NCBI GenBank assembly: GCA_013115125.1
Contig: JABANN010000093.1
Location: 1 to 64,000, forward strand
DNA: 64,000 nucleotides
Direction: 5' to 3'
Origin: Perkinsus olseni
Taxonomy: Eukaryota
Position 1 is the first letter of the stretch, and the number at the start of each line of letters is the position of its first letter. Shown here piece after piece: positions 24,063 to 61,540 of this stretch. The notes beneath the pieces were generated by a model that saw only the letters and a program-made list of their open reading frames with translations, was not told the origin of the DNA and did no database searches. A program made the position numbers and the translations under genes.

Positions 24063-27000
24063 ATGGCAGGCAGGAAAACGTCAAGATCGAACACCGAGGG
24101 CCGGAGGCGATTCGAGTCAGCGGTCGAAGTCTTCCAGCTGCTGGTCAAACCGCTCCTGGCTGCCGAGCAGCAGTACGCTAACCCCGTTTGCTCCTCGAAG
24201 TAGAGTCAAATCGAACTCCCTCTTTAAGGACAACGACCAGTGGCTCGACCAGGCCTCGCCGGCCCGACTTCCCTCTGCTCGTCTGGCTACCCGAAACGCT
24301 CATCCTCGGCCTTGACCTGCCGGAGGGTTCACCAGAGGAGGAAAAGAGAACCCCGCTGCTCCACCAGACTGGCGTATGGCTCTTCACGGATCGTACTGGG
24401 CGTCTCAGAGCCACGCGAAGATTCACCGACAAGGAGGTGCTTGGTCATGCTGGGAAGTGAATTCATCAGTCGGCTGGTAGGTGCTAGCCCGATTCACCAA
24501 TGCTAGCGTTAAGTCGGACAATCCTTGCTGTTTGCAACTGCGAGACCTAGTACCAGGGAAGACCGTGAGGACTTGGTTGTCCCATGTGGAGTTGGCGTCT
24601 GAACTGAACCGCAAGGATGGAGGGCTGCGGGTGGGCCCTAAGGTGGCAGGCTAGATGGCTGCTTCATCGCACCTGCAGGTGATGCAAAAATCGCCGAGTA
24701 TCTTGCCACGCGGGAGGTCTTCAGCTGCGACCTTGCACGTGACCTACATCACAGGGTCCTCCTCCTCCACACGCTTCGGCAGAATCCGAGCGAAGTGGCG
24801 GCATGACGGTGTGCACGCGAGAGAAGCGTCTTAAGCAGGGCGCCCGGCTCAGGAGCCGAGACTGTCGTGTCCAAGTGCCCGGAGGAGGTGGAAGCCTCCG
24901 TTAGAGCACTGGTGGACTGGCTGTTGCAGGTGGGTGTCGCATCAGTGGGGAAGCTTTTTCACCATCTCCGTCAGGTCCGAGGCCTGCGGGTGACTCAGAT
25001 GACCCTGTCGTTCGCTCGTCGGTCTCCCGCCAGGAGCTCCCGAGGAGATGCTCTATACTGGCTTCTCACTGTCGGCAACCTTGAAGGAGTCAGCGGTCGC
25101 AAAATACGTTCTCCGATGGTCGCCCAGCGGCAGAGGCCCCCGAGCCTGTGGGGCGGTTCCGAGGCGAGCACCGAGTGAGGCCCTCACTATGAGGGCCTGG
25201 TGGCAATCTCAATAAGCCATTCTCCTCAGATGGGGCTTTCCTTCACAGACGTCGGAACACCGTTCGGTTCCTGAGACAGGGGCCCGCCAGCTGTACAGGT
25301 GTGGGTCCTGCGGCGGCAACTTTCCGTCACTCCCGTAAGCCAGTTCGCCCCAGACCGTGACCGGGCTGTGTCACTGCATTCAGTAGGTTCCGAGTGGCGG
25401 CCAATGCGTTGTATCGATCGGGCCAACATCTGCAGCAGCTGATGTCGTGCCCCAGCTCTGCTCAGCATCTGTTGCCCGGAATGTGTCCCCTTCGTGGTGG
25501 GTCCGCTGAGGATCGGTATCGGCTCATTCGCACGTGCTCACAATGCTACCGGCTGCACTTGGCGCTCGAAGACCTCGCTGAGGTGGCGAAGGCTTCCGCA
25601 GCTGCGTTGGGAGGTAGAAGACCTAGCACCCTGACAGGGCTCCCAATCCCGACCGCTCAGGGCCCCTACCGTTGCACGATGAGCTTTCCGCTGTGTCAAG
25701 GGAGGTCGACTTCTACAAGGCCCGAGGTTTCATGAATATTCTGGCTGCCGTGGACAAGGTTGAAGCCCCAGCAGTTGAAGCAGGAGGAGCCACCGTCGTG
25801 GACTTCCTCCCGCCAGGCGTGAGCTTCCTGCGTAGCCACTCAGCGCTGGAGCCCGAGTCTGGGGAGGAACTTCTCTTGGAGTAATTCCCTGCCCTGCTAG
25901 CACTCCGCTTCAGTAGACTGGTCGTAGAACCGATTCGATCCAGCCGGCGGAAGTCAAAGTGAAGCTGCGGTGGCGAGTCATGCTCTACATCACAGAAGTG
26001 GCGGAGTGAGCCTCTCTTATCACCACCTCTCATGAGATCTTCAGGCTCCCTCTGGCTGCAGTAACGCCCGAAGGAGCGATCCCCGTCGTAGGGCAACTTG
26101 CTGCTGTCGCTCACCACGGCGTCCTCTCTTCAGGCTTTGATTATTCGTTTCTGTCTCCTCGGCACGCACTACGAGTTGCATGCCCCTCTCGATAAGGGGG
26201 GTGGTGATGGCAGGGTGGCGGTAAGGTGCTTTTGCCCCCTCCCACCGTTTCAGTGTTCTGCCAGATTCACGCCTTGCGTGTCTTTTGGATCCTCGCGGAC
26301 GACGCAAATTCGATCCAGCGCTGGGCGAGGGCGACAGGCACCGTGCAGGTGTGTCGGCATCGCTGCGCAGGGGTCTGCATCGCTCCGTCGTCAGGCGACC
26401 CTCAGCCTGTGCTGCCAGGCAGGCAGTCCTTGTAAAGGGGACAGCGCTGAGAGCCTCCCAGCACAGCGAGAACAGACGATAGCGATGTGTGACTTGGGTA
26501 ATTCATCAGTTCCCTGCCGGGGCCGGGGTTCGAACCTGTGCCTTCGGATTCACAGACGACAGCCTCGCCTTCCTGCTCGTAGATCTTTCTGAGCTGGCGT
26601 CTCGATCGGCGCAACAACAGGAGATACGACACCAACTCAGAGCTACGGGGCGACGGTGGTGCGGCGACCTCCCCAACTCCGCTTCGCCCTCGCCCTCCTC
26701 GTACGCCGCCTCGCCGCCCTTGCTGAAAGGCTGGTTGTGTATGGACATGCCGGACCCCGGCCCAGTCGACTGCTCTTCCGACGATCGCAGCGGTCTTGGG
26801 CGGCTCAAGATTAGACCAGTGCAGCAGGACACGGGTCTGTGGGCCCCCGAGTGAGCGTGTGTAAGGCGGAGCGAAGAGACTCTTCTATGCTCCTAGGGAT
26901 TGGACGTATCTTGGCGTCGCGTCACCACTACCCCAACTATGGCTGGAGCTACTCACCCTGCCGAACAGGGAATCCTTTGGTCGAACCAACTCCTTGAAGG

Positions 27001-29518: not shown

Positions 29519-29675
29519 GGGACAGTCGCATGCCGCCGTCTCTCATCCTACTGTGGTGTTGTGTCCTGGAGTGTGATCAACCTTGGGCGGCGGGCCCGCC
29601 CTCCGGCCCCCTGAAGCCGTTCGGGACTCTTCGCAGTAACAGAGCTGCATGCAGCTTCGATCGTAGAAGTCTCAC

Positions 29676-34759: not shown

Positions 34760-37591
34760 TGCCTTCACTCGCGAAAACACAACTCAACGCTGATGGCATA
34801 ACGGCTACACTGACCATGCCGGAGAAGAAATGGCGAACTCGCTAGGGGCGATGGACACCTCCCCTGCGGAGGAGATGTTCAAAGACGTCGAGATAAGCCG
34901 CAGGATGCTCTTGAAGTCAGCCAGTGGGAGAGAGGACAGCACTGTCGGGTCTGCAGGAAATCACTCGCCCTTCGTCCACAGTACGACTGCGCGGAAACAC
35001 TTACCCTCGATAGCGGCCTTGGCCAGCTGTGGCAGCCGATCGATGTCTTCTGAGAAGCCCGGGCCTTCGGATACTCTACGGCACACCTCTGCCATGTCTA
35101 GCTGGCCGGCCGCAACAGTCTCTCGTCTCATAGGGGCATAGCTGGCGAAAGGACAGCATTGGAGTGGTCACCAGGGGTTGAAATACTCTACCACAGTACG
35201 TCCATCAGGAGGGGCACCTCGGTCTGTTGGGATGCCGAGACTCGAAGTAGTGCGGTCTCCAGGGCTGTCGAGCTCGGCGGCGACCAAGATATCTGTACCA
35301 CCCCTTGGAAGGGTGACAGGGGAGGTTCCACTCACCAACCTGGTCACCACGGCCACGGGGAGGGGCTTGGCAGGAGCCGCGACTCTCGGTGTATCACTGA
35401 TCGGTCTGAGTAGAACAGGCTTGCCGTCCCGCTCGAGGGGTGAGTCGGAAGGAGGGGGCTCGCAGGCAGTGGGGTACTCATCTCGCGATGGCTGCTGCTC
35501 ACGACCTGACCGGAGTATCCTGGCCGAAGAGATTTACTGTTGCCGAGGGGCGAATCGGGAGGGGGGTTGTTGCTGGAGTTGAGGAGAATTACCGGAGGAC
35601 AGTCTGCTCCACAGCCCTCCGAGCTTCGGGTTGATGGGTGGCCCTCCTCTCGAGGACGTGCTGCTGGGGGCCAGGATGATGTCTCGCAAGCGGCCGCCAC
35701 AACGTCTGGGCAGACGAATTGGGCGAAAGGTGGTACTAGGTTACCTCTCCCGGACCCCAACCAATCGGGAAACTATCCCGTCCACCAAGGCTGCTGCCTC
35801 CCCAGCAGTGTCCATACACACACCCAGAGTGTACCTAGTCAGTCGTCCTTCACTACTGAGGGGACATACTACTACAGGAGGCCTCCTGTGGCATCTAGTA
35901 GCCTGAAGACAGCCAAGCCACGGTCCAAGGACAGCAGCCACACTTCGAGCTTCAACCACTCATCCACGCTGGTGACCGTCTGGTCCGTCCTCAGGACGAC
36001 TGGTATCCACGCATGGACCGGTGGTACCCTGGACACAAGGGGGTCTTCTGGGCACACTAACGAGGCCGGGAGTACAGTGCTCTCCTCCTCAGGGATGCCT
36101 CGTCGTCCGCAGCCTCGATCTGAGGAGCGTCTGCTGCTGCGGGCCAGAGGGTGAGGGTGACTTCACTACTACCTGTATATTCCCTTCTAACCCGAGGGTG
36201 ATGCTGGCTGCCATGCGCTTCACCTCAGCAGCGGACATTGGCGTCTGCCGTACCAGACTGATTTCCTCCAGTAGAGTAACGCCTTCCAGATCGCTGATGA
36301 CGACGATGAGGGAGGACGGAGAACCACCGGTCTCGCCGGCACACCCTTCGAGTAGGGCCCTTGCGAGTACTGTGCCGCTGAGGATCGAGGGGGGTCGGAG
36401 GGGACTCATGGCTGAATAGAGCAGTACCCTTTGATGAGGCCTTCGGGTGCTATGAAGGTGCCGCCGTGCGGGCAGCGCCCTCGCTGGCCGTCCGCCTTGT
36501 CATGCTCATACAGATGTAGCCACACCGTCACCACGTACAGCTTCCCGCTCAACTCCTTGGTAGAGCGGTGAACAATCTCGCAGGCCGTCACCGGCGAGGC
36601 CGCGGGTTCTATTCCCACGGCTGGACCTTCCTCTTCTACTGCGGCCATACCCGTTTCAAGCTTCCGTCGAAGCTCCTCGGCTGCGGTCACTCTATCGGAC
36701 CTGACCGATTGGGTTGGCCAGAACGACACCCCAACACCCACAGGCTGTCCAATGCTTCCTGCCATTTCCCAGTCCTACTGAGCCCGCCACGTAGCCTCTC
36801 CACCAAGGAATACCGAGACGACCAGTCGGACTCTATTACGGCCCTGTCCTGAAGCCTCAAGGCATGGCCCCTCACCAGGCACGGGCATGCACCTCACCCT
36901 CAGTAGTTCAATTCTTTCGGCCTTCAACTTCGCAACTCTAAACTCGAGGTCCTCCAGCTGTCTGTGATGGGCTGATGTATCCTCATCGACAGCCCAGCAT
37001 CGTCGGGCCTACTTGTAGCCGTCCAGGGTGTGGCTCAATCGGGCCGCCTCCTCCTCGGCTGCCCTTCTATCACGGCCGACTCTCGACAGCAATCGGCGAA
37101 GGTTCTTCCAGACCTCGGCGGGGACCATCGCGCAGTAGATCCCCCTTCCATAAGGCTGAGGGCATGACTGCAGCCCAGTCCGTTATTCCGTCAATGACAT
37201 ACGTCAACCAAAGATACTGATTCCATCTCGGCTAGGAGACGTCCTTCATCAACTGCGTCCCGGTAGGTAGACGACAGTAAGGAGGAAGCAGTGCTGCCGA
37301 AGGGGCGACCTGATAGACAACAGCCGACGGCGAGAGCCAGCGGCCGGCTTCACCTCGGGTGTCGTCTGATGGGGTGTGATGGAGGTAGTCGCCCGCATGG
37401 AATTTCCTGTCGAACACAGTGGGTATCGAGGCCCCAGCAGTGACCCTAGCGGGGCCCTTCGGCAGCACAGGAAGCCCCCCTTGCTCGGAGGAGGAGACTG
37501 AGGGACCACCACCGACCGTCGGAGAGGGGCTTGCAGCGACGCTCCGTCCAGGACGAGGGCTGGCTCTCCCCTTCTCTGCAGGGGATGCCAT
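34760..37591 (-). CDS. Multi-exon hypothetical protein
   Basis: Series of minus-strand ORFs separated by GT-AG introns, starting MASPAEKGRASP; no family recognised; ends approximate. Confidence 0.5.
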
Positions 37592-37946
37592 CAATGAGCC
37601 CTCAACTGTACGCAGGATTGGCTGGCTCCAACACAACAGCGAGGAGTGGATGATGATGATAAGAGTTGAAAAACGTTGTTGTGGACAGAACGAATAGGAG
37701 GCTAATGACAGTGGACGATGACTGGCAACGGTAACAGGAGGGGACGACTAGCAGAAGTGATGATACTGGAGTGGCAGTGGCAGAACTGACTCAAGGGCGA
37801 TGAACCGATGGAGACAGACGAGGTCATAGGAGACCATTGTGGCTCCCTGCAGAGGCCCGAACTCAACTGCCTGACGCTACAGCACTAGAGGAGGAGGCGG
37901 AGCCCTAGAACAAAGCAGTAGATGTACTGCAGTAGTGACAAGAACG

Positions 37947-40484
37947 CTAGCCTACCCCGGCTCCAGCCGACTCGGAGGGTCCCTCCTCTCCAAGGAGGTC
38001 CAACTCCCTCGACCCTCGACCACGACCACCACCACCACCACCACCATCGCCGTCCTCGATATCATGCGGGGGCTCTGATGATGTTGAGGAGGACCAGTCA
38101 TCATCGATATCCTCGAATCGGTGAGAGTAGGGCTCTTGTGTGACACCTGAAGTTGGCCATCATGCGTTGAAGGATCTGTGACAGCTGGGGAGCTCACCCA
38201 GTTGGTACACTCCTCCTCTCTTCCTCGAACGCCATCCGTAACACATAACCTACACAGACGGTACGCAGTAGCAGATGGCAGAGAACTTACACAACAAGCC
38301 GCCAAGATGAGGACCCCCGCAACGACAACAACTGCCGCAACCCCGGCGTCCGAGAGCGGCGAGGAACCGAGTGGCACGAATCCAGTAGAAGCAGGAGGAG
38401 GAGGGGCTCTCGTTATCGACTCGACCTGCTCCGCCGGCAGAGCTGGCGCCAGTGTCGGCATGAAACTGTGGTGAGGAGGAGGGTAGGTCTGAGGGGGTGG
38501 CATGAGGCAAGGAGAAGAAGCGTTCCGGAGAATGGCAGCTCACCGAGTCCATCCAGGGAGGCATCGCGCCCTGCACAGAGTTCGGCCTCTCAACATACTG
38601 TGGACAGTCTGCCTCCGCCCACCCAAGCCGCCGATCCTCGAGGTCGAATATGATATCATGGCCTTGCATCCACGATGCGCCTAAAAGCACCTGTGCCGTG
38701 GATCGATCCAGGGACCTTCCGATTACCCAGCACCGTCTCCCTCGCGTGATTGTCCTCCAGGGTATAGCAGTACGTATTGCTATTCGCTTTATTGTACCTG
38801 AACGCGACTCACGTACTAGCATCGTTATCCCACATCCGATCCCCGCGCATGCCTGCTAAGTTCATACCACAACTTCCCTTCTTACATGTAAAACGTAGGG
38901 CGCCACAGTCTGTGCTTCCCCCCAATAGTAAACCGGAACACTGGGAACGAAGAGGTGTCATTACCAGGCGACTGAGAAAGGGAAATCTCAACGTATTGAG
39001 AAAAGCTTGAACACAGCTCATTACCACCCAACAGGTCCTGTCCTTCCGAGTGGCCCCTCCACAAGCGCCGTCCTTACACGCCTCGTCTACAGCAGCTGTG
39101 AAGCTCTTAAAGATTTGCGGAGGGAGGTACCTGACCGAGAGGGAATGGCGACGAAAAAGGCGGAGCGAAGCTCTTACGTGTAAGTCGTCCCAGAGTCCAC
39201 CATGGCATTACCAAAACTATCCTTATCAGTGGCTATGTCCGTCACCTGCACGAATGCTGTTCATTCAACCGTAGAAGCTTCAACAAGGCGACTCACGGTG
39301 GTGACCCCCTTGACGGTGGAGGGCTGGTCTTCCGGATAGAGGCCGAAGGACTCGATATCAAGGTAATAGAAACCTCGCTCTGTGCTCATCGGGCCCCAGT
39401 TCACCGATGACCTGCGGACAGAAGCAAAGTTGACAGACTAGACCTCTGCTGTGTCGCCACTTACGTGTGCTTGGTGGCGTTGTACCCACCTACCACAAGC
39501 TCTCCTCCCCAGGTCGCCAAGCACATAGATAAAATACTTTTGTCCACCTGAAAAGTGCCGTTGCTAGGGATCGAACCTGAGACCTTCCTACTTGATTGTT
39601 CTCCGAATTAAAGAGAGTCTGTAGCACTGTTTGGCTGTCGGCTCTCGGAGGCGCCATTCCCATGATACCTGAGACTAACTCTCCCCAACGCCGAGCCCAC
39701 ACGCCTTCTAATACCATTGGCCTTCTGCGTGTAGAAGAGTTTATTCTCGCTTGTGTGGCAGCCAAGCTTAGTCATCACCGCTGGGTTCAGCTCATCATGG
39801 TCATCCAGACTGACGTAGTCCTTAAACCAGTACCCTTCTATGCTGGACCCCTCCGTGTAAGATTGATGGTAACTGACAAAGAGACTGTGGCGACAGACAG
39901 GGCGATGGTCGACTGCCTTACTAGCATTTGTCGTTCCTGCACTGCGTCCGAATAGTAGCGGGGCACTCGTCGCAGGACAGCCACTGCGCCGTCGAGCTCT
40001 TGTTCATGTCAAAGCGGGGATCGATATGAGTGCCAACATGAGCCTCCGGTATCTCACAGGTGAACCCCGGCAATGTCGAACCTGAAGGAATGCTACTTGG
40101 GTGAATGTGTGATGGCAGGAGGGAGAAGCTACCAGTGTCGACGATGAGGCTGGTCCGCTGCTGTGGTGTCCCCACGAGGAGGTCTATGAACCAGTAAGCA
40201 TACCGATCAATGTGGCCAAAGAGCTTGGCTGTAACCGTCGTATCACCTGCGGGAAGAGCATCCCAAGCAATAGGGGACAGCGGCACGGACCAACCTCTGC
40301 TGTAGACCAACTCTCTGAGGTTGCTGGTGCTGTGAAGTTGGCGTATTCCTGAGCCATCACCGTCATAAACTCCCCTTCTAGACCCTCCCTGAGCGGTGGA
40401 CGTTGTGGATAAGGCCAACAGTAGTAGGGGCATCATCATCGTCACTGCCGTACACAAACGGGTGGGATAGAGGTGAGGTGACAT
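37947..40484 (-). CDS. Membrane-anchored aspartic protease, plasmepsin V/ASP5-like (A1 family), multi-exon
   Basis: Signal peptide; YAYWFIDLLVGTPQQRTSLIVDTGS; Cys-rich insert CDECPATIRTQCRNDKC; LSMCLATWGGELVVGGY; MVDSGTTY; LGASWMQGHDIIFDLEDRRLGWAEADCP; C-terminal TM VAAVVVVAGVLILAA. Confidence 0.9.
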
Positions 40485-45800: not shown

Positions 45801-45883
45801 AGGTTAATCAACTGCGCGGCAAAAGTATCACCCAAGGGACAGACACTCGAACACAATGGCGGGAGCAGATAACAGGAAACTCG

Positions 45884-46387: not shown

Positions 46388-46553
46388 CTCGAAACAACCC
46401 TAGAACTAGACCATCCATAGAAGGAACCCAACACTAGAAGTGACGAGATCATGGTGATTAGGAAGCTGTCTGCCGACTGTCACAATTGGAGTTCTCCCAG
46501 ATCTCCAGCACCGCCATCCGTTCTTAGAGACCGGCAGACATCTACCATAACGG

Positions 46554-47265: not shown

Positions 47266-47290
47266 ACAACAGAAACCGCACAACAGGCCG

Positions 47291-48964
47291 TTAGTCCTTC
47301 GTTGCTGCTGCTTTCTTCAGTGGCTGAGTGAGCAAGTGGCCCATCTTCACTTTATCCCCCACTTCCACCGCCCAATCCATCGACTGAGGGGCTTCGAACA
47401 TCATCACGATGGTGCTGCCGAGCCTGCCATACAACTAGTATACATCCCGGCCCAGCAGCAGCGGGCCTTACATAAAAGTCCCTATTGGATCACCGTGCTG
47501 GAAGGCGTTGTCAAAGAGCCTCGTCCGGATCTCCCCTCCGGTGTACACTGAGACTGATCGCAGCTGATTCGTACGCAGTTTGTTCTCGAAGGCAAGCTTT
47601 ATGCCACCCACGTTGTACCTAATAATATACGGTGACCGTCCAACTAGAGCATTACTGAGATCTATGCGGTCCAACTTCCAATACCACACCAACGGTAACT
47701 CTCCTCAGATTAGAACACGAGGCTCTCAAAACCACACGCAATTTGCCCATCGTGGATTCGTCGGAATGAGCAATTTCGTTCCTCCCTGCCCCCCCCCCAC
47801 CTATTACGCTGCAACCGGTACGTAGTGGCACTGTCCGAACGCCCAAGTCCCCGATAAGACCACTCTCTCATTCGCTGTGAATAGGTCGTCCACTGCAGAG
47901 GCGAACGGCTTCATCACAGGCAGCACGTCTCCTGGAAAGTGCCTTGAAGAGCATCCAATGACCCACACTCGGATTCTTATGTGCTACCGGGCCTGCTGCA
48001 ACTGGAATTTCGTGGGCGAATGGAATCTATGGTAGTCGCCTGGAGAGAGGTAGATCACCGCGTACCTGATCGCATACCATAAAAGAGAGAACTCACAAAG
48101 CAGCACGTACATGAGTTTGGATTCTGGATGCAGCCTCCTCATAGGGTCCACTCCCAAGAAGCCCGACAGCATGTAAGTGCCGCCCTTTACCCCAGATATC
48201 GTCGGGTCCAGTTGAGAGACTCTCGTTTGCCCTCCTATGAGTATTAAAATACCACAACAAGTGTAACGACGCGACGATTACGGTCAATCACTCCAAGGTT
48301 GACTACCTCTCCATCGCAAGGACAGACCATCGTAGTCGGAGCAACATCCTCCATGGGCCGTGCCTGAGACTGTTTGCCAAGCCACCAAGCGCCGGCACCT
48401 TTCACTACCCCGTCTTTGAGAGCTCGTGTGAAGAATTCCTGGAAGGAGTGGTATGCATCTAGTGGATACCGTATTTCCGTGAGATCAGCCCCAGTGGCCT
48501 TCGCATAGAGTTTAAAAAGGGGTTCCCTCATCTTCACAGGCAGCGTCCGCGACATCAGACTGCCGGTGATCCGACTCCGAGTGCCTACCAAACGGCCATG
48601 GACCAACAACGGCGGCCGAGCCACTTACGGCCGAACACAAGCCTCGAGTAGAAGAGAGTACTGGGAGATGTTATACCACTAGGGTTGCCCACTACTTCGA
48701 TGACCTGAAGCGAGCGTGGGCAGGGTTGATGGTATTCACAATGTACCTCATTATACTTATACTGGAATCCTAGCATGACGATGGCCCCGGCAGCAGCCAC
48801 GTACAACTTCCGTCGTCGGGTTGCCAACTTCCGCTGCTCTTCCACCGAGAACCTGCGCTAAGGATTCCTTCCATCCCGAGGGCTCCCTCCGTCCATTACC
48901 TTGCCCCTAACTTCAGAGCCGCCTTAGTCTTCTCAGAAGGTCCAAATGTTGGGATCGAGAACAT
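47291..48964 (-). CDS. PSD: Phosphatidylserine decarboxylase proenzyme, multi-exon
   Basis: SFQEFFTRALK, VCPCDG, VKGGTY, VIYLSPGDYHRFHSP, NERVVL, YNVGGI and the spliced LGSTIV autocleavage motif. Confidence 0.95.
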
Positions 48965-49508
48965 GTTGGCAAGGAGCCTTAAAGTGGTTACACTCACATG
49001 AATGCGCAGAGGGGAGGAAAAATACCGTCGCTGGGATTCGAACTCGCGCCGAGATCCACCACCATGACTAATGTAGGTTGACGAACGCAATATGCGTTGG
49101 GTGTAGAAAAAGAAGATAAAAAAGGATGTATGAAAGAGTCGTGTACAAGGGGCGTACGATGACCCCGACGACTGTTAGAGGTTGTGCTGCACTGTGCGGG
49201 CCGCACGTTCACAGGGACAGCTCACAGCGGAGATATTCCGCACAGTTTACACCTGTCGATTGTGGTGGTGAGCGACGCCTCTGTTATTACGTTCAGAAAC
49301 CGAGAGAGCGCACTCTCTGTTATCGGCATAAACCGCTCCATGTGGTTGTGGTGACACCGTTGCGAGAGACTGTCACCACCTAGTCACGCTAGGGGAGGCC
49401 CCCTTGCCCCGCCAGGGGTTGGCTCCCGACGATGGTGATGACGCTAGGACGGTCTTGTTGTTCTGTAGTTATTATTTACTTGGTATTCCGTGATTCTGTT
49501 GAACTATA

Positions 49509-50281
49509 ATGGCTTCTTACTTTTCGGCAGAGAACCCAGTTTACACGCCGGTAAGGAGACAGGAGGACTTGGATCATGATGATGGTGATTTCAAAAACGT
49601 GACAGCTGTCGAAGGTAAACGCCTCCGTTATCGTCATTGTCTGATTGTGTCTGCCTTCAGAAGCAAATGCCATAGCGAGCATGCTGCCCAGTGTGGTGGA
49701 GCAAGAGTCGCCTCAGCAGCTGGCTTCATTTATAATAGAGATGTCGAATGAGATATCCAAGCTTGAAGAGAGGCTCCGACTGGAACAAGAGAAGAACAGC
49801 TCTCAGGCAAATGAGATTCTTCTCTTAGAGCAACAACTCGCCTCCCTGCCATCCCCTCCAACGGAGGTTGGCCCGTCTTCTGATGCGTCCGCTGATATAT
49901 CGGCTCAACGAGATCGTGCATCGTCATCAAGTGTTAAGGGCAAGCTGTCCCCCGCTGAAATCTTCGCGATTTACGGTATTAACGAGTCCTGTCGGAAGGC
50001 CCTGAACAAGTCCCCATTACTGGCCACACGTTCACGACGGCAGAGGGTTGCCGACATGTTCATGGCAGTCCTTCAGGAGATGGACGGCAGTGAGGCTCTC
50101 CATCAGGTAGTAGCGGCAGGGTGGTTATTCGCTCGTGATTCGTCCATGTTATCAGTCTGGCAAGGAACCTTCGAGCGATGAATCACCTGATTATAACGCT
50201 ATCTTCGTGGAATGCATGAAGGCAGTTCAAAGGCATACCTCCCCTTCCAGTCAACGGAAGTGGGTTCCTAAGAGAGACTAA
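49509..50281 (+). CDS. Coiled-coil hypothetical protein, tandem copy 1 (3 exons)
   Basis: MASYFSAENP.../VVEQESPQQLASFIIEMSNEISKLEERLRLEQEK.../SGKEPSSDESPDYNAIFVECMKAV...RKWVPKRD*; paralogue adjacent. Confidence 0.7.
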
Positions 50282-50294
50282 CTCCTCTATGCTT

Positions 50295-50295
50295 C

Positions 50296-50330
<35 letters not shown>
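50295..50330. repeat. (CAA)12 microsatellite
   Basis: Perfect trinucleotide run just after the stop codon of copy 1. Confidence 0.98.
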
Positions 50331-50332
<2 letters not shown>

Positions 50333-50801
50333 CTAAAGTGTCAAGTTGGGCATCTTTTTGTTCGGTATGCTGGGAACCGTAAAAGTCGTCAATCATTCAC
50401 GTGGTCCATGTCCTGCGGCTACTGCCGTTGGTGCTTACCATCAACCACTCAGAAAACTTTGTTGATGATGAACTTTTAAGTGACGCCCCTACCATTTTGT
50501 CATGATGATAGAGGGCTGATATTCAACAAAAAACCACCTCCAGTTGTCGTCGTACTAGTCTCGCACCCGCCACCCTGCAGACGGGATGCAACCTTCATTT
50601 GGTAGATATTCGTCGTCGTAGTCGTCGTCACATTTCATTTCAGCACTCTGATAGTCGCGGTTGTGTTGCCGAGTTCGGTACTTATGGTTTGGAGGCCTTT
50701 CAATTTGCGGCATGGAATCGAATTCTGTTGAAGGTGGAGAACTGCTGTATTGACCTGCTTGTTTGAGGTGAGTTCCTTCGCTTACATTTTTCTGTCGAAG
50801 T

Positions 50802-51566
50802 ATGATTACTCCACTTCCGTTGGGGTGCCCAAGAGAGCAGACTCAGGAGGAAGCTATTAATGACGAGGCCACCCTTCAAGGTGAATGTCTCTCGATGTTT
50901 GTGCCCTCATCTGTCTTTATCGTCATTCAGAAGTCGATGCCATAAAGACCGTGCTGTTTAGTGTGGTGGAGCAAGAGTCGCCGCAGCAGCTGGCTTCATT
51001 TATAATAGAGATGTCGAATGAGATATCCAAGCTTGAAGAGAGGCTCCGACTGGAACAAGAGAAGAGCAGCTCTCAGGCTAATAAGACTCTGCTCTTAGAG
51101 CAACAACTCGCTTCCTTGCCATCCCCTCCAACGGAGGTTGGCTCGTCTTCCGGTGCGTCCGACAACGAATCGGCTCAACAAGATCGTCGGCCCTCACCGC
51201 CTAGTGTGAAGGGCATGAAGTCCCCTGGTGAGGTTGCTGTAGAATACGGTATTAGCGGATCGTCTCGGGCCGCCTATAACTCCCCATTACTGGCCACACG
51301 TTCACGACGGCAGAGGGTTGCCGACATGTTCATGGCAGTCCTTCAGGAGATGGACGGCAGTGAGGCTGTCCATCAGGTAGTAGCGGCAGGGCTGCTATCC
51401 GCTCGTGATTGGTCCATGTTATCAGTCTGGCAAGGAGTTCTGTAGAGGTTTTCCAAATGATATAACTCCGGACTACAACGCAATCGCCACGGAGTGTATG
51501 AAAGCCGTTCGACGGCAGATTTATTCGAGCAGCCACAGGAAGTGGGTACCGAAGAAAGGAGAGTAG
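50802..51566 (+). CDS. Coiled-coil hypothetical protein, tandem copy 2 (3 exons)
   Basis: Same exon structure as copy 1; ends PDYNAIATECMKAV...RKWVPKKGE*. Confidence 0.7.
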
Positions 51567-52540
51567 CCCCTGTGATTGCTTGGTTGCAGTACAGGAGTTC
51601 TTCTTCTTCTTCTCCTTAACTGAAGTTCATCGTTATGAACGCTATTGTGTAACTACAAGGCATTCCTTGTGCTCGTCGACGACTTCTGTTCACTATCAAG
51701 GATGATCGAAACTAGCTATCTCGAGTGGAGCTGAACTCCAGCTGTTGGAGCCTCAACTTGATGCATTCTGGCCAAGAAATCACTCAAAGCTAGTTATTTT
51801 TGCTGCCTGCGTTAGTTTCTGTGGTTTTCTCTGGCTCCGCGTTCGTAATTGGAATTGAGGCTACGATGGCAATTGTTCAGTCGCACCGAACACGCTGCGA
51901 GTCGTGGATCACGAACCGTGACGAACCCTAGGGCTGGTTGCTCATGGCGTGTCATGAAATGTAAATATTCGAGCAAGTGGAATGGCCCGGCTGAGTTCTG
52001 TCTGGGAACCGCTTCTCTCTGACTCCGTGACGTTAACGTCTAGGGATGTCCACTGTGGCCTATTTTGCCAAAGACTGTATGATCGTACCAGATTGGCGTC
52101 CCCTCCAGGTGTGGAGTATCATTGGTAACGCGTGTAATATTAGGTGCAAGTGAACAGTTGGCAAAAGGCAAGTGCTCTAGACTCTCGTGCTCGCCGTGCC
52201 CGCATTGAATTGGTATACAAGCTGTATAATACAGCTCTCTCCAGCCTGCATATGCGATACTCGACCGATACACATTGACGATTCTTCCGTAGTTGCTGCA
52301 CGGGCGGCGTCATGGTGACGCCGTCACGGTGGGCTAGGGCGTCACTTGGGTTGAGACGAGATTTCGTCGCTTCGCGCGCCTGATAATGGCCTAATACTCC
52401 TTAACACAATCGCATGGCTTGCACTGAAGTATACTTTACTGGCATGATCTGTTCTTTCACCGTGTATCGCAGGTAAATGACGCGACCACTGACAGTTCAA
52501 TTGAACCACTATACACAAAAAAACACACTCAAATGACAGG

Positions 52541-52612
52541 TCCGCGGTAGTATAGTGGTGAGTATTCCTGCCTGTCACGCAGGAGACCCGGGTTCAATTC
52601 CCGGCCGCGGAA
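52541..52612 (+). tRNA. tRNA-Asp(GTC)
   Basis: Acceptor TCCGCGG/CCGCGGA, anticodon arm CCTGC-CTGTCAC-GCAGG, T-arm CCGGG-TTCAATT-CCCGG, followed by CTTTT. Confidence 0.97.
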
Positions 52613-52797
52613 CTTTTCTGCTATTGTTCCGGGCAACGTGAACTATGAATTTACATGGTACATATGTTACGCTCTTGAGTTTGGCCTCGCTACAGCCCTA
52701 ACTGAGACAATCCACGCATTATCTGGTATCTTTCGAGACAAGAATGTCACGAATACTCTCGAGCAGGGCTCGGAGGCTCTCAGGAGAAGCAGTGGAG

Positions 52798-55700
52798 TTA
52801 TTTAAGGCGTCTCGAACTCGCCCGAGGATTATCAGGCGTTCCGAGACCAACCTGAAACATCAGGACTCTCGAAGGTCGTAGAGTAGCCTCAACGAGAAAC
52901 TGACCAGAGATTCCGAGCTCATTCGAGATTCGCATCCTACAGGCAAGAAATACCCACCGCTGCCGATGTCTCTCATTGATCTTCATTTCCTCAGCCTCTC
53001 TTTTACGTCTTGCTAATTCAGCAGCGGCCATTCCCATTGGCGTTTTAGGTGTACGAGGCGGGACAGGGCCTTTGCGAGGCGTTCGCCGAGGAGTGAAGGA
53101 ATTGCTTCCTCCTGGCGACGGGGTGTTTTGCCCCGCTGGGGATCGACGCGTCCCCATCAACAGCTGTGCCTCCAAGGCCTGCCTGAACAGTGTCGGCAAT
53201 CAGTGGCTGCGCCTGGGAAGTACCGCCCCACCTCTCATTCCTTAGCCGCTTGTTCTCTTCGTATAAGTTATTAATTTCATGCCTCAAGTGTTGAACATAA
53301 CTGACCCTCCTGCTTTGCGAAAGACGGTTGCCTCCCGAGTTCGCATTGGAAGCAGTCCCAGAGGTGATAGCTTCCATGTCGAACCGTTCCATTATCTTGT
53401 GGCATCGAGCAACCTGACGAGAGAGTCCAACGATGATTTGCAAAACTCGTTATTACTTCCTTAGCGGCGGTCTCCAAGTCGGCCCGAGTTGATGCCAGAT
53501 CCCCGAGAGCCTCTCGCAGCGTCTTGTTCGCCCCTTCAATTTCCCCTTCCAGGCACTGTCGCTGTTCCGCTGACAGACCAGTTGCCCGCAGCACCTGATA
53601 CTGCCCCCTTGTATTCTACTCATAAAGAGCCTCAGCATCACCTCAACTTCTGCTTCGCGCTCGGCCATTCTTTCCCTTGTGATTCTCAATTCCTCGCCCA
53701 TGCTTTCCCTCTCCTTATCGAGCTCCTCGATGCCATTCCGGAGTTGATATGTCTCCTAAACTCACACCAGCTGTTGGCAACAACGAGGGATCCCCACCTC
53801 CTGAGTTTCTCTTATGAGAGCCTCTAGCTCCTCCTTTTCATGCTGCATATACTCCAAAGTAGCCGCAAGGTGAGCAGCAGCTTCCTCCTTCGTTCTCGCG
53901 ACCTCAGCTCTGGACGAGAGAATTTCAGCGGCCCTCAGCGCAGCCTCCCGAGCCTTCTCCTCCTCTGCAGCGACCATTGCCGCTCGCGAGAGGCCGACCA
54001 CACAGGCCTGATGAAAGGAATGCATAAAAATGACGGAGAGAACCAACAGCTGACCCTGGCCACGATCACTGACGCCTCTTTCTGCGTGTATAAGGTCTCG
54101 TAGAAGGAGACTTTAAACTGGAGATCGAGCATGCTGGCTTCAGTGTTGACCAGAGAGTCTCCGGCGCGGACCAAATCATCCGATAACTCCGCGGCTCGCC
54201 CCTTCCACTCTCTCAGAGACGCTCGCACGGAGTCAAGCTCCAATTCCCTCGCCGATACTTGAGACTGAAGATGCTCATTCCTGAAGGTATCCAAGGTCGA
54301 AGCTTGACGATCTCAAAACGCTCACTGTGCCTTCCACTTGGTACACTGTTCGACCATAGCAGCGAAGCTATTATCTTGCATGCCAAGCCTAGTCTCTAAC
54401 ACGCGTATCCTCTCCCTGGCCTCCTGCATGCCAACTCTTGCTGATGCCGCCGACTGAGCTGCTGTGGCTTCATTCTCCAGCAAAGTTGAGCGGAGCGACG
54501 CAATCTGGCGATCTCCGTCATCAATCCACACGCGGAACGGCGATCAAAATAACCTCGGCAAGTAGGCTGAGCTTCTCCCTCTGGCGATCCTCGGCCAACT
54601 CCCTCAGCATCCCCTCCGCCACTGCTGCCCTTCCAGACGAAATCATGCTCTACTCAACAGCAGCCGTCCCTCGTTCACCCAGGGCCACAGGAGACTACCT
54701 CTCGGGCCTTGGTGTTGACCTCTGCCTTCAGCTCCTCCATCCTCTCCCTCTCCTCGGCCAGCTGCATCTGGACGTCCGCCAACCTCACACAGGCCGAGTC
54801 CCTCTCCTCCTGGGCACACCGCTGCTGCGCTATCGACTCCACGAGCTGAGCCGTGATGTTGAAAACCTCGAGGGAGGGGCAAGAGGGAGTCAGCCACCGG
54901 AGGCCACCAACGCTAACCTGGTCTTTGAGCTCTCCCATAGCACCAGAATGTTGTAGAGTGACGGCTGCATCGAGTAGTAGTGCAGACACTCTCCTCAACC
55001 TCCTCCTCCTCTTCACGCTGCTGTTGGCCAGCCCTCCTGGCGTGCTGTACAGTGATACTACGCCCGGGGACTCCTGAAGGCCTATAGTCTTCGACACCGT
55101 CGAACAGAAGGCTTACGATGACAGAGCGGGGGAGGGGTGACGGTTGAGTGACGGTAGCCTCTTCGGTGATAAGGGCCTCGCCCCCTTCCTGGTCCTCAAT
55201 GAGCAGTTCTATCGGAGGTACAGCTTCATCCCCTTCCTCCTCCAACTCCCGCGCCAGACTCTCTGCCTTTGCCTCGGACGCCCTCAGAGCTTCTCGGACC
55301 TCTACCAACTCCAACTTCAGTGCCGATACCTCGCCCAACCTGTTAACAGTGGTAGTGAAGAGACAACCTGAGACGGCTACTACCTCCTAGCCTCCGCCAC
55401 CTTCAACTTCTCATAGCGCTCCTCCGCGGCGAGCTTGGACCTCTCCTCAACCTCCATTCGTCGTCTTACTGCTGCCAACTCTGAAGTTACCTTGGAAGAA
55501 GAAGCAACATTCTGCCCAGCCATGTGCCTTGTGAAGCTCTCGATCAAAGCATCGTGGTTTCGGCCTATGAGGTCGCCAGTAATGACACTGAGACTATCTG
55601 CCACCGAGAAAGCTTCACAGTTCCAGGCTCCCTCGGTGTCAGAAATTTCACCGACCTCAAAAACCAGTTCCGGTGACGTAGTTGTGAGACGAAAGATACG

Positions 55701-57780
55701 ACGAGCAATACATCGGAGGCCGACACTGGGCTTAGCTCAGTAGGAAAGAACAATACACTGGAATGCTCGAACCCGCTACCGGACAGTTCTTCAAGTCTTT
55801 GGTGAAATTAAAGGACATGCATCTCTTCGACTCAATAATGTTGGAAGATCCAGGAGGCAGCGCATGGGAATGAATTCGTGGTTGACTGCAGCTCCGACTG
55901 AGGTGATCCCAAGGTGCTGCTCGACGGGCAGGTAAAGACTATCACTCATTCTGTCCTCTCTCGCTCAAGACGCAGCAAGACTGCCTCAGCAGATACCGAT
56001 GGTACGGAAGACTCTCTTACGGAAGTAGCCCCCCGCTGAGTGGCCTCCCTCAGGAGGATGGCGAAGTTGAGTACAACCAACCCTGTAGGGCTCTAATCAT
56101 CTCCGGTCGAAGTCCTGTAGATATCGGACTTAGCTGCCCCTCCCTTCACCTGGCTCATCTCCTCCTTCACCCCCTCCGCCTCCTCCCGAGCAGCCTTTAC
56201 TTCATTCTCGTACTTCTTATGCAGCCCTTGGCTTGCCTCCAGCTCCTGCTCCACTGCCCTTATCCGATCCAGCATCTCCCTCGTTCGCCTAGGGCAGCGC
56301 CATTGCGGAGAATAACAACCACCGCAAGGACCTACCGCGCTTCGACCGACTTCAGCTCGTCTATCTCCCTGCCTTTCACCTCCTCCAAAGCAGCCAACTT
56401 TTCCTTCAACTCGCCCACTTGCTTCTGCAGCTGCCAGCAAGAGTACCGCAAGCTGCCACGGTCGGACCTCCTCACCAGCTCCTTCTCTGTCGTCTGCTCC
56501 TTCCCTTCGCGAGTCAGGTTCTCAATAACGATCTCCATGGCCACCATCCTGTCTCGGTGCCTGACTCCGCCCTGCCCTCCATCAACAGCACCAGTCCCTT
56601 ACTTGTCGACATCGGCCTTCCGGCCCTCCCCTTCTGCAACCGCCTCCTCCAGCTTCTCACACTCCGCTGTCAACTCGGCAATTCTCTTCGTGGATGCATG
56701 CCTTAAGTCCGCGAGCTTCAGAGAGACACGAAATTCAGCAACTCGTGAGGGCCCCTTTCTCACAGCCTGGGCCTGCTGCGATCGCTCCTTTGCTGCTCCC
56801 TGCTTCACGGCAGCTAGCTGAGAATAGAACCAGGATCGTGCACTCATTCTTCTGTTCTATTCTGTAGATGCACAGACGAATTAGCGATAGCGAACTCTTC
56901 CGGCATACGAGAAGAGGTACTGTATGATCTCATCATAACGAATCCTGAGTCCGCAGAGTAGCACTTACTTCAAGCATGGCCTTCTCATGGACCCCCTCAG
57001 CGTCCCGAGCCTGCTTTCGACTCTCCTCAAGTTCAGCAGCCACCAGAGAGAGTCGGCGTAGTAATCGATCAATCCTTTTGTCCCTGCAAGGCAGTGGCTA
57101 CCGAGGACCGCCGTCCAAGCTCGAGGGTACTTCTCATCGTCGGACATCCTCTTGCCCTTGTACTCCCTTAGTTGCCCCTTCAACTGCCTCACCATCGATT
57201 CCGCCTTCCCTCTCCTCTCCTGCTCCACTGCAAGCTGCTTCCGAAGGTCCATGCACTCGTTGGCTTGGGCCTGCTGCCGACGACGTTTCTCCACCTTTCG
57301 AATACCGTCATAATCACCTTCAAATTCTCTTTGTCAACTCCTGCGTCGCTCCGCCTCCTACCACCACCCCGTTTTCTACCACTACTATCCCCCAGTAGTG
57401 AGCTCGTCGATGCACAGCCAGAAACAGCAACGCTGCTGTTCACAGACAGGCAGCAGCTGACTTCATCATCATCATCCTCAGCGCGGCCCTGCGACCCTAT
57501 CGACAGCGTCCGACTCCGCAGTGGAAGGTAGGCAGCTGGGGAAGCCAACTGGAGGAAAGGAGGACGTATCAGTGGACTTGCCCAGGCACTCTACCATCGA
57601 CTCCCCCTCAGAAGAGGATACTGATGACCGCCTTCGACTGTTCGATCGACTCAGTCGTTTGTAGCTGCTAGGCGGTGGAGGGAAGGCACTTGGACGAGGT
57701 ATTCTCGTCAACGGCGAGCAGAGCTCTTCTAGTGGGGGAGGGGACCCCTCGGCTGGAGGCAAGGGGTGGGCTGCTGCCAT
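52798..57780 (-). CDS. Long coiled-coil protein, multi-exon (possibly two genes split near 55.75-56.05 kb)
   Basis: Numerous E/K/R/A/L-rich heptad exons joined by short introns; Pro/Ser-rich N-terminus. Confidence 0.7.
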
Positions 57781-57909
57781 CAAGACTTCTACCCCGTCAC
57801 CGTTACCGCGCCCCTTAATTCACCACTACAACGACAACAACAAGGCGTGAAATGGCAACTTCGACACGAGCATGCTGGACAGCTTCATGTATAATAATAG
57901 TACACCGGG

Positions 57910-60077
57910 CTACCATTGGGTAGCAGCAGCGGCAGCGATGCAGGTCGGGTCCTCGGTCAGGTACCTAGAGCGTTGATGATAACAACGGAGGCGACTGAAG
58001 GGCAGCCACTGACCATGGTTTGATAACTTGAAGGAACTGGAAGACCTTCTTGGCGACTTGGGAGTTGTCAGGATTCTTATCAGGATGCCACTTCACAGTG
58101 AGCTGCTTGAACGCTGTCTTCCTCGCAGCGACCTCTTCCCCAGCAAACAGGGACGCCTGCATGTCCCGCACGACCTCCACCTTGATCTCATACGCCACTC
58201 TACTAGACCAGTCATCACCCTCTAGCGGCTCTGTGAGATGCTCTGACACTGACAAGGAGGGGACGCTCATTCAATCGCAAAATCGTCGCTGTCTAGTACC
58301 TATATCCTGAGGGGGCGGAAATACCGTGCTCGGGGTTCGAACCAGGGACCTTTTCTGTTGATGGGTAAAAGGCATGCTACCAGGTGGTATGACCGGATAC
58401 CCTCTATGATAGTGCTCTCGTTGGGCCATCAAAAACTCTGCCTGCCTCTGCTTCATGTATTCTTCCCATTGACGATAGTACTCCCTCTGAGCCGCCGCGT
58501 AGGTCGCCCATGGATCCCCTGCCTCCTGCTGCTGCTGCTGCCGATGGTCGGCAGGCAGCCTCTCCTCCTCACTATTATCGTAGTAGTTATCCGCAAACCC
58601 CTCCTCCTTTAACTCATCCCTTTGCTGCCCTACCTGTCCTACTACTACTCTCTCTCTAATAGTGACAGTGGCCCTGTTAGCCTCGCCCCTCCTATACCCA
58701 CCACCCTCTCTCTTACCCGTACCCCAGCTCTTCAGAAGACCCAAGTCGGGCATTCCAGCGGGGACGTCGCTGCTACCATCCCCTACGTGAAGGGGGCCTT
58801 GCTCTACTTCCAGACTGGGAGTACCCTTGCCCAGTGACGTGCCCAGGACGTGCCTAGCTTCCCCAGGGTGCGCAGAAGGATACCCTATACTACTGGCGAC
58901 CTCCTCCTCCACCACAGCGACATCATCGCTCTCATCCCCCGCTCCCTGCTTCTCCCCCTCAAACTCTGAGTCAGGCTCCACGGGTATCGAGGGGGGCAGC
59001 GGCGGTAGACTGGGGTGCCAATAGGGTTGATATCCTATCGATTCTCTCATTCTCTCCGGCGGAGCGACGCAGTTCTCCTCTACGCTGCTTTTCCCATCCT
59101 CCTCTTGCTCCTGCCTACTCTCCTCCTCCAGCGCAGCAATGAGGCCCTCCTGCGCTGATGCTGCTCTGTCCATCGCTTGCTTCGTACCGGCCATCCGCTT
59201 GCTCAGCTCGGCTGATGCCTGACACGGCGGCCGCTACAACTACCAGCAGCAGCAGCAGTGGCACAGGTCTCCCTCTCACCTCGTCCATATCCCGTAACAA
59301 TGCCCTAGCCGCTGCCTTGATGGCCCCTGGAAGCAGACAGAGGTCCGATGGCTCCACCCAGACTCTCTGTCCCCTCTCCCCCAGTACGACCACCCAACAC
59401 CTCCCCTCAGTCGCATCGCTCTGCTCAACTTCACACAACGCAAAGTCCTTCCCTCCCAAGGAGAGGATGCCGCATAGATCACCCACAGGAGGCGGGGCGA
59501 CGCACCTGGAGAGCTCCATAGCGGAACAGCCAGCCAACAGCTCCGTCCATCTGCCCTCGAGACCCTCCACTACTACCCTCGCCCCACGCTTGGCCTCTCG
59601 TGCCTTCACTACCCCCATTGCACAGTCCATCAGCTGGCGCTGTAGTAGCGTATCAGCCCGGGCACTCGAACTCGCCTCCAACACTGTCGAGTCCCCGATA
59701 GGGAGCGGCGCGTCTCTGCGATCTCTAGCCTCCTGTGGCCCATCCTCGGGCGCGTCACCACTGGCCGGCCGGGCCCGAACCTCAGTCGAGTGACGAGTAC
59801 CGTTGGAAGGCCTCCCTCTTCTCCGGTAACTCTTCGTCCGCCCCTCCTCCTCCTCTTCACTACCACCATCCACTGTCCCAATACTATTACCTTGCGGCAG
59901 CAGCAGCAGCCTAGCCATCCTGAACTTCACTCTCTCCACAAAGCCCCTCACCCCAGCCCCTGTGATGTAGTACTTGGGAGCCCTATTCCTATACCACCGC
60001 ACGCACCTATAGGAGCAGATCCCCACCACCATTAACGCCCCTATGGACGCGATGACCACTAGCAACGCATACGACAT
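57910..60077 (-). CDS. Membrane-anchored protein with C-terminal DnaJ (J) domain
   Basis: N-terminal TM YALLVVIASIGALMVVGIC; C-terminal KTAFKQLTVKWHPDKNPDNSQVAKKVFQFL with the HPD motif. Confidence 0.8.
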
Positions 60078-60229
60078 CCTCCCATATTGCAAAGGGGCCG
60101 ACACACAGCTACGAAAGGGAGTGACTCGTCGAGAGCAACTCAACACTGACAGCAGGTAAGGCAGACAACAAGGTGGGTAAAGGGTGGTGATGATAATGAC
60201 CAAGTCATGACGATTATGAATTACTACCA

Positions 60230-61540
60230 TACTACAAAACCTCATACAGCAGCCGTGGAAGGGCGTCCTGCAGCACAAAGATCGAGGGCACGCAGCCACA
60301 GCTGACCACCTACTCCCGGGCTGCCGACGTCCACTGCTGGTCGAAGCCTTCTGAGTGCTCGGTCGCTGAGGTTTGACCTCTCCGCGCAATATCCTCACCA
60401 TCGACGGTATTCTGAGAGGAGGTAGTCACGGCAGCCCGACCGAGACCCGTCTACCTCCCCGAGAGTATTTTCCCCCGATGGAGGTTCTCCGTATTGATGT
60501 AATCCCTGACCCTATTGGGCACGGCATTCCCTTGCACCCTGCTGCTGTTATCCTCAGCATAGCTGCCATGCTCCAACAACACTCTACAGCTCTCCCGAGC
60601 GTCCATTGCAATCGCCGAGTCAGCCCCCGATCCGGGCGGATAGTCCTCACTGAGGAGACCAACCTCAACACGCCACCAACAGCAGAGCCCTCACCTGTAT
60701 CTTGTCCGAGCGTCGAAGTGGAAGCCCATGGTACTGGTAGTGGGCTTCGGTATCGGGGGCTTGCACCTCTCCCCGACGCACTCAATACCTCCTGAGTTCC
60801 TCTGCCAGTCAGGATAGAACTCGTGAGAGGCCGGCTGCTTGTACCTGCACGAATCACCCTACAATGCTGTGCAATAGTGCAGCGAGGTTACAGGAGGTAA
60901 AGTTCCCCATCAACATGGGTCTGGACGGCAGGCCTCAGCATGGCCTCCTTCCGAGCTCCAGGGTACACCACGTAGTCGTCCGAATATCGACTCCGGCCCT
61001 TCTGCTGAGGACTAGGGCCATTGGCCGGACCTACACAGCTCGATAGGTGATAGTAGGTAAAGGGGGACTCCGCCCTTACTCGAGGCAGGCCGGAAGGTCT
61101 TTGCCAACTCCCTGTTGATGACCGCACCTTGCAGGGGCAGTGGTTGGTACTGTTCCATATACGCGGACATCTCCCGCGGCCAGAACGGCGCCCTGTTGGG
61201 CTTGAACTCCCCTGAGCGATGGTCAGAGCCACAGGATCAGACCCAACAGCACTTACCTCGCCGGGCCATGTCCTCATCGATCTTGTGAATGCAGGACATA
61301 CTCTGGCTGCTGCTGCTCGCGCCACTGGAAGACTTACCCACCACCACGGACTTGTCCACGAAAGTCTCCTTAGTAGTGGTACTGTAGAAAAGCTTACGTA
61401 CATCTTCAGGGGAGAAGGAACTTTGTATCTGCACGATAATACCTCAGCCGGGAATCGAACCCGGGACCTATCAGTGTCACCTGTGGTGTAAAGCCCTGGG
61501 ATGCCATCAGCTTCTTCTTAGCATCGTGTACAGCCGGCAT
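60230..61540 (-). CDS. Multi-exon hypothetical protein, possibly microtubule-inner-protein-like
   Basis: MPAVHDAKKKLMASQGFTPQ splices in frame to IQSSFSPEDVRK; recurring short motifs STTTKETF, SRYSDDY, ASHEFYPDW, STMGFHF. The 3' end is approximate. Confidence 0.5.
61440..61477 (-). pseudogene. tRNA 3'-half fragment (Val-like) filling an intron
   Basis: ACACTGATAGGTCCCGGGTTCGATTCCCGGCTGAGGTA: perfect T-arm, variable loop and 7-nt acceptor strand plus discriminator; no 5' half nearby. Confidence 0.75.

Follow-up and report, generated by a model that had tools for sequence, protein, structure and literature searches.

A 64,000-nt stretch of the Perkinsus olseni genome (assembly GCA_013115125.1, contig JABANN010000093.1, positions 1 to 64,000; hereafter called the window) contains six short elements that resemble the 3′ part of a tRNA gene. 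Four of them lie in introns, and the other two are located in a coding exon (at 58322) and in a 5′ transcribed region (at 49023). An original prediction had noted three introns of 44-58 nt carrying such sequences, at 26498-26555, 39548-39591 and 61429-61480 (referred to here as sites 1, 2 and 3), and a fourth intron, at 38681-38726, can now be added to this recurring pattern. The observation is thus confirmed and slightly larger than first noted, with site 1 as a marginal case. Among the explanations offered with it, capture and splicing of tRNA fragments is favoured. In our best reading, to which we give an even chance of being correct, fragments from the 3′ part of tRNA genes were captured in genes transcribed by RNA polymerase II (Pol II) and became mini-introns or rebuilt existing ones.

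The origin of new spliceosomal introns is an old question, and readable source sequences are rare and mostly belong to transposon families. If the reading is correct, a recurrent tRNA-fragment source would allow intron births in Perkinsus to be dated and counted. Full-text literature searches found no description of tRNA-derived introns in this genus. All of the results presented here rest on the one 64-kb window, protein databases and two sets of spliced RNA contigs.

Elements resembling the 3′ part of a tRNA

The elements follow the layout of tRNA positions 44-73, comprising the variable loop, the T arm, the 3′ strand of the acceptor stem and the discriminator, as in the 3′ part of a tRNA gene, and in some copies a T-run terminator, with CCA absent. 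In every copy, the exonic one included, the likeness to tRNA begins at the variable loop. Neither a cloverleaf, a 5′ half nor an A box was found beside any copy by ARAGORN, Rfam or inspection of the flanking sequences, in agreement with the earlier statement that the three noted introns lack CCA and a 5′ half. The T stem is perfect at site 3, has one mismatch at site 2 and contains two or three in the other copies. All six elements are on the minus strand of the window, and five are in the sense orientation of the host gene, the exception being site 1. For comparison, ARAGORN and Rfam (cmscan, E up to 10) identified four true tRNA genes in the window: three for tRNA-Gly(GCC) at 11566-11636 (+), 13404-13476 (+) and 20292-20362 (-), and one for tRNA-Asp(GTC) at 52541-52613 (+). 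These reference genes score 58.5-67.4 bits against RF00005, and their discriminator is followed by N(1-3) and then TTTT.

Site 3 (61429-61480, minus strand) is a 52-nt phase-0 GT..AG intron in gene D, which is orthologous to P. olseni FOZ60_011654. Its core (61440-61469) reads, in the sense orientation, AGGTC / CCGGG TTCGATT CCCGG / CTGAGGT / A, with GTGACACTGAT before it and TTATCGTGCAG after it on the same strand. Site 2 (39548-39591, minus strand) is a 44-nt phase-0 GT..AG intron of a peptidase A1 gene (gene E); its core (39556-39585), in sense AGGTC / TCAGG TTCGATC CCTAG / CAACGGC / A, is preceded by GTAGGA and followed by CTTTTCAG after the discriminator. The fourth intron (38681-38726, minus strand), which was absent from the earlier list and surfaced while the introns implied by protein models were being listed, is a 46-nt phase-1 intron of the same peptidase gene. 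It carries a decayed sense copy (core ~38688-38717), the whole intron reading GTAATCGGA AGGTC CCTGG ATCGATC CACGG CACAGGT G CTTTTAG.

The likeness of these sequences to tRNA was evaluated in several ways. A scan for T arms gave 10 matches in the window, four of which were the true tRNA genes, compared with 2.5 +/- 1.5 matches (maximum 6) in 200 dinucleotide shuffles, and the string GGWTCGAWYCC occurred four times against an expectation of 0.27. A composite score, which sums stem pairs, loop consensus, AGGTC, discriminator A and T-run, reached at least 17 at two sites (17 at both site 2 and site 3) but never in 300 shuffles, and at least 16 at three sites, against 0.017 per shuffle; the true tRNA genes score 15. 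In a less circular test, profiles were built from four elements, and the fifth was recovered at 16.7-22.5 bits for each of five elements (22.5 bits for site 2, 22.4 for site 3, 20.0 for the 58322 copy, 18.2 for 38681-38726 and 16.7 for the 49023 copy), whereas the best matches of these leave-one-out profiles in 40 shuffled windows were 9.3-12.4 bits. With an element-only profile, the 38681-38726 and 49023 copies score 35.9 and 26.4 bits, respectively. The next-best matches of the element-only profiles were the 3′ halves of the four true tRNA genes, with tRNA-Asp at 16-21 bits. Conversely, with a profile made from only the 3′ parts of the four true tRNA genes, site 3 scored 21.4 bits, whereas the shuffle maximum was 10.4. 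Sites 61429-61480 and 39548-39591 are tRNA-like far beyond chance.

These values bear directly on the possibility that the whole set arose by chance or convergence, as GC-rich short introns that happen to hold a hairpin with a TTCGA loop. The Rfam tRNA model gave no significant truncated match at the sites, and restricted Rfam scans gave only T-arm-level matches at site 3 (tmRNA, 12.3 bits; mascRNA, 15.7 bits) and none at 38681-38726. Site 1, the borderline piece at 18801-18834 and other weak matches are near the shuffle level, and a high-scoring copy is found in conserved coding sequence, so that such strings can arise otherwise. However, the two composite scores of at least 17, the recovery of site 3 by true tRNAs alone and a T-run after the discriminator that is absent from all 70 other introns (see below) make chance a highly improbable explanation.

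The remaining copies are more divergent or are located outside introns. Site 1 (26498-26555) is a GT..AG intron of a plus-strand gene (gene F), 58 nt long or, in the P0020 model, 85 nt long (to 26582). The tRNA-like element predicted there is present at 26516-26542, but it matches best on the minus strand (13.8 bits, against 2.9 on the plus strand) and is antisense to the gene; it is marginal, and its core, GGTTCGAACC, is palindromic. Weaker fragments had also been pointed out at 18789, 49023 and 58322, and two of these are real. The 58322 copy (58322-58351, minus strand; composite score 16) is translated as part of a coding exon in gene D, in frame with the flanking exon, and the 5′ splice site of a 51-nt intron (58249-58299) follows 22 nt downstream. 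The copy encodes KRSLVRTPSTVF, a peptide that is conserved in the P. olseni model P0008 with an in-frame one-residue indel nearby. The 49023 copy (49014-49050, minus strand) is a decayed sense copy in the 5′ transcribed region of a phosphatidylserine decarboxylase gene (gene B); its position within the transcript is suggested by the record length of an RNA contig together with the open frame. It scored 8.3 bits by the tRNA-only profile, which is not above the shuffles. The 49023 copy and the 58322 copy, which is coding, share ACGGTATTT. The fragment placed at 18789 corresponds to 18801-18834 (plus strand; CCGGG TTCCATT TCCGG, 7 nt, A, TTTT) and is borderline, with a composite score of 14 and 12.4 bits by the tRNA-only profile against the shuffle maximum given above. 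Another weak sequence resembling the 3′ part of a tRNA, AGGTC GTTAG TTCCATC CTAGG AAGCGGC, is present at 3126-3158 (plus strand; 5.6 bits, score 15). The sequence upstream vaguely resembles a D arm, and the string may be a decayed tRNA pseudogene.

Three other identities were considered for these sequences and rejected. A mascRNA-like fold at 61441-61487 (minus strand), in which the last 7 nt of exon 1 pair at six of seven positions with the acceptor strand of site 3 to form a mini acceptor and T-arm helix, was below the Rfam threshold (25.1 bits, E 0.93) and was taken as chance. To assess a split or permuted tRNA gene, the sequence upstream and downstream of the copies was inspected by eye for a 5′ acceptor strand that would match, and none was found; for a primer-binding site of the retroviral type, no TGG was found beside the antisense copy.

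Predicted splicing of the host segments

All three of the noted segments begin with GT and end with AG, and P. olseni protein models place each of them in an intron; the exon frames shift across the segment, and the spliced reading agrees with the protein. At site 3, the P. olseni model P0008 (2066 aa) begins MPAVHDAKKKLMASQGFTPQ|IQSSF, which is the junction obtained when 61429-61480 is removed (GFTPQ|IQSSF). The adjoining exon (61240-61428, minus strand) shows 92% identity to a P. olseni protein, and other proteins of this species could be mapped elsewhere in the window, which is thus near to the annotated P. olseni isolates without being identical to them. Site 2 is skipped by three P. olseni peptidase A1 models (P0010, P0011 and P0018), and its flanking exons are in different frames. 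Both site 2 and 38681-38726 are located inside a continuous Pfam Asp domain, site 2 within residues 56-405. When 38681-38726 is removed, the reading matches P0018 across a conserved protease motif, whereas reading through it meets a stop codon. At site 1, the downstream plus-strand exon matches P0020 (84% identity) and P0021 (45%), so the plus-strand exons are coding, and they require the removal of a segment of 3n+1 nt, either 58 nt or 85 nt. The plus-strand open reading frame (ORF) upstream of site 1 had no match among the longer proteins.

The RNA contigs, which cover 43001-63000, contain joints with GT..AG or CT..AC ends, mostly of 42-53 nt; in 43001-51000, the introns are 42-53 nt long except for one of 189 nt. 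Sites 1 and 2 and 38681-38726 lie outside the RNA-covered stretch and were placed in introns by homology. The host segments show the features of local spliceosomal introns, namely GTA or GTG at the 5′ end and AG at the 3′ end, a length within the local range and restoration of the frame of a homologous protein.

Two further points concern the gene models. P. olseni FOZ60_010486 (P0011, 1119 aa), which maps to 34808-40484 (minus strand), joins the peptidase A1 gene to the gene downstream of it, whereas FOZ61_009230 (P0018) ends at 37866; P0011 is probably a fused annotation. The joined gene has no detectable similarity to the peptidase and is not a paralogue. A Pfam search of 150 of the 212 stop-to-stop ORFs of at least 90 aa (those in 24.8-62.3 kb) gave only three matches and no gene map.

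Origin of the elements and of their host introns

The intron set used for comparison consists of 73 introns (3804 nt), of which 15 were taken from RNA joints and the rest from protein mapping; mapped gaps of <40 or >110 nt and overlapping alternatives were left out. The lengths have a median of 48 nt and lie between 41 and 55 nt in 67 of the 73. The third base of the 5′ splice site is A in 50, G in 18, T in three and C in two, and among the 15 RNA joints listed of 43, GTA occurs 14 times and GTG once. Profile matches are present in three of the 73 introns, all with elements in sense. A 47-nt intron at 56289-56335 (minus strand) begins with GTAGGTCC, after which TTGCGG...CCGCAA forms a perfect hairpin of 6 bp; with a fold of -17.4 kcal/mol the intron is among the most stable of the 73, and it could be a badly decayed member, although the profile does not match it.

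A run of TTTT directly after the discriminator is found in two of the three tRNA-like sense introns, whereas the last 12 nt of the other 70 introns contain none (Fisher's P ~0.001). The T-run therefore arrived as part of the element and is no general property of introns. Two intronic copies have CTTTT after the discriminator and the 49023 copy has TTTTT, the same layout as in the true tRNA genes of the window. This points to tRNA genes, or primary transcripts carrying the terminator of RNA polymerase III (Pol III), as the source, rather than mature tRNAs.

The three sense introns have lengths inside the local norm of 41-55 nt, and the relic fills 30 of 44, ~30 of 46 and 30 of 52 nt of them, leaving 14-22 nt of other sequence. 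This is too little room for an older intron, and an intron seeded by the fragment fits best. Moreover, bare fragments also occur within an exon and within a 5′ untranslated region (UTR), which indicates that the dispersed units are fragments and not whole genes. We propose that bare fragments, extending from the variable loop to the discriminator and in some cases including the T-run of the Pol III terminator, may have been captured inside Pol II genes. In Perkinsus, very short introns are spliced by minimal signals (GTA or GTG ... AG), and an insert of ~30-40 nt with a few flanking bases would already be intron-sized. Copies in coding sequence would then survive mainly where they are spliced out. 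On this view, such an insert most likely gave rise to each of the sense host introns (44, 46 and 52 nt) or served as the core for its complete rebuilding, and the inherited T-run would occupy the position of the pyrimidine tract. Other copies may have persisted by being translated (58322), by lying in a UTR (49023) or as a passenger lengthening an older intron (site 1). We infer from the sequence features that a capture event occurred, that it represents gain rather than trimming and that the elements have no tRNA or Pol III function today.

Of the explanations originally put forward, the seeding of introns by tRNA fragments is the one that best fits the sizes of the sense introns and the bare fragments elsewhere. 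A second, less likely one is that intronic tRNA genes were trimmed during compaction; no intermediate was seen. In a related explanation, which fits site 1, tRNA genes or fragments entered older introns harmlessly as passengers, and strong selection for a length of ~48 nt deleted the rest until the 3′ part remained. Neutral inserts do survive in introns, the elements show small indels relative to tRNA numbering, and an antisense element in an intron of 58 or 85 nt, above the normal length, is what a passenger would look like. In the sense introns, however, the older intron would have to have been replaced almost entirely. No intermediate with a fuller tRNA or a 5′ half is present among the 73 introns, and the exonic copy has the same 5′ edge at the variable loop. 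We consider a passenger origin of the set somewhat unlikely.

The elements are also heterogeneous. The six cores share 15-23 of 30 positions in pairwise comparisons (50-77%), and the same range, 15-23 of 30, is obtained against tRNA-Asp and tRNA-Gly; this level of identity is not that of a young introner or repeat family, and the copies are old, derived from different tRNAs, or both. This argues against a mobile, tRNA-derived family of mini-introners that would spread through transposition or retroposition, each new copy being spliced out as soon as it has inserted. Such a family would account for the five elements in sense orientation, for the recovery of every member by leave-one-out profiles and for the string GGAAGGTC..GG.TCGATCC...CTTTT(C)AG shared by the two introns of the peptidase gene. 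On the other hand, its members would be no more alike than unrelated true tRNAs are to them, and no obvious terminal repeats or target-site duplications were seen by eye at the junctions of three copies, a number too small for certainty. Only three of the 73 introns are involved, there is no link to a transposase, and scans of metagenome contigs found neither the exact 30-mer of site 3 nor a relative of the peptidase gene. Taken together, we regard a mobile family as quite unlikely.

In another reading, Perkinsus could draw introns from ready-made 'tRNA-half' cassettes, parts of a tRNA gene or primary transcript that extend from an anticodon of the form G-U-purine to the Pol III terminator. 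The GTR of such a cassette would serve as 5′ splice site, its acceptor strand would contain the branch region and its T-run would act as pyrimidine tract, and the cassette would be spliced at once when captured in sense. In the three sense introns, a GTR is indeed located 16-21 nt upstream of the T loop. The same spacing is seen in site 1 (read on the minus strand) and in the 49023 copy, where the GTR cannot be a splice site. The spacing in these five copies is compatible with the cassette, but it is a lead only, and we think this reading unlikely. If it is true, tRNA genes would be a transposase-free source of ~48-nt introns, perhaps of ~4% of those in the window. Several of the acceptor strands end with ACGG(C/T)A, an ending that presumably resembles tRNA-His and is taken here as a lead only.

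The third of the original options was that T-arm DNA is kept as B-boxes that bind TFIIIC, forming chromatin sites like the ETC/COC loci inside genes. The B-box consensus GGTTCGANNCC is retained in four of the six elements despite the mismatches in their T stems, and all six are on one strand of the window. However, the elements were detected partly by this motif, which makes the evidence from its retention circular. The motif is lost in two copies, being ATCGATC at 38681-38726 and GAGTTCGAATCC at 49023; the 58322 copy is constrained as coding sequence instead, and the active tRNA genes of the window do not themselves match the strict motif. We found no specific support for this option and consider it very unlikely, although, if the B-boxes were kept on purpose, this lineage would have its first proposed sites of the TFIIIC type.

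Several points weigh against the reading of capture and splicing, and the first concern site 3. The intron as noted there is backed solely by an annotated P. olseni model, such models being annotations and not transcripts. Among the 15 of 43 RNA joints listed for 43001-63000, none is at 61428/61481, and a gene model made by script preferred a different intron of 61 nt (61382-61442) that reads through the relic; this gene model and a crude codon-bias score are too weak for decisions on frame. Second, 70 of the 73 introns show no such element. Of the 20,971 nt of mapped gene span, 18.1% is intronic, and the introns contain three of the five elements in mapped genes (P = 0.045), or four of six when gene F is included (P = 0.012), but these nominal values come from six elements in one window whose discovery was partly led by introns, and purifying selection on exonic inserts would by itself enrich introns for them. 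Third, the composite score was devised after the sites had been seen. Fourth, the copies resemble each other no more than they resemble true tRNAs, comparison with the tRNAs of the window allowed no source tRNA to be named, and the three junctions inspected by eye show no target-site duplication. For gene annotation, the copies show that a tRNA-like string within a Perkinsus gene can belong to an intron, to untranslated sequence or to translated sequence.

Neighbouring repeats and comparison with known systems

The three tRNA-Gly(GCC) genes are identical and lie within 9 kb, and two of them have ~7 nt of upstream flank in common. Between them, a direct repeat of 130 nt is present in three copies (12389-12518, 14055-14184 and 14722-14851; 73-77% identity). 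At 60-190 of the window, there is a cluster of short repeats based on the palindromes GGATCGATCC and GGATCGATT, including two direct copies of CCCRGGATCGATTKACTGAACAG.

Among known systems, tRNA-derived short interspersed nuclear elements (SINEs) consist of a tRNA-related 5′ head with A and B boxes, a body and a tail. As dispersed, non-functional descendants of tRNA genes with a B-box, they and the 'tRNA look-alikes' are similar to the elements described here. The latter, however, lack the whole 5′ half, and with it the SINE head, and are only ~30-40 nt long. The ETC/COC loci of yeasts are B-box-only TFIIIC sites whose definition rests on TFIIIC occupancy and most of which lie between genes. 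The likeness is an isolated B-box without a transcribed tRNA; the elements in the window, in contrast, are located in Pol II genes, contain far more tRNA sequence and are known from sequence alone.

Introners, as described for Micromonas, Aureococcus, dinoflagellates and Amoebophrya, share with our elements the splicing out of inserted DNA, the occurrence in unrelated genes and an alveolate relative among the hosts. They form near-identical families, usually with terminal repeats and target-site duplications that provide splice sites. By contrast, the copies in the window are 50-77% alike, sit in introns of 44-52 nt in total, are tRNA-derived and showed no obvious repeats or duplications by eye at three junctions, and the many near-identical copies of an introner family were not found within the window. 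Passages of PMC7789003 and term searches of PMC9860276 and PMC11282704 gave no mention of introners or tRNA-derived introns in Perkinsus.

The Dada transposons of Perkinsus marinus are inserted in tRNA-Ile, -Leu, -Gly and -Tyr genes, and this genome contains >500 copies of five tRNA types, according to Kojima and Jurka 2013 (PMC3706591). The cluster of three tRNA-Gly genes in the window fits the tRNA gene amplification reported for that species. Dada inserts at TAGCTC in the A box (in tRNA-Ile and -Tyr) and is 4.7-11 kb long in the elements described there (PMC3706591), whereas our elements begin at the variable loop and no transposon adjoins them. If the reading of capture and splicing is true, intron gain would be tied to the amplification of tRNA genes and to the tRNA-cutting transposons of this oyster and clam parasite. 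The likeness to Dada lies in the shared genus and in the combination of hundreds of tRNA genes with an activity that cuts them, which would be a plausible supply of tRNA-gene fragments.

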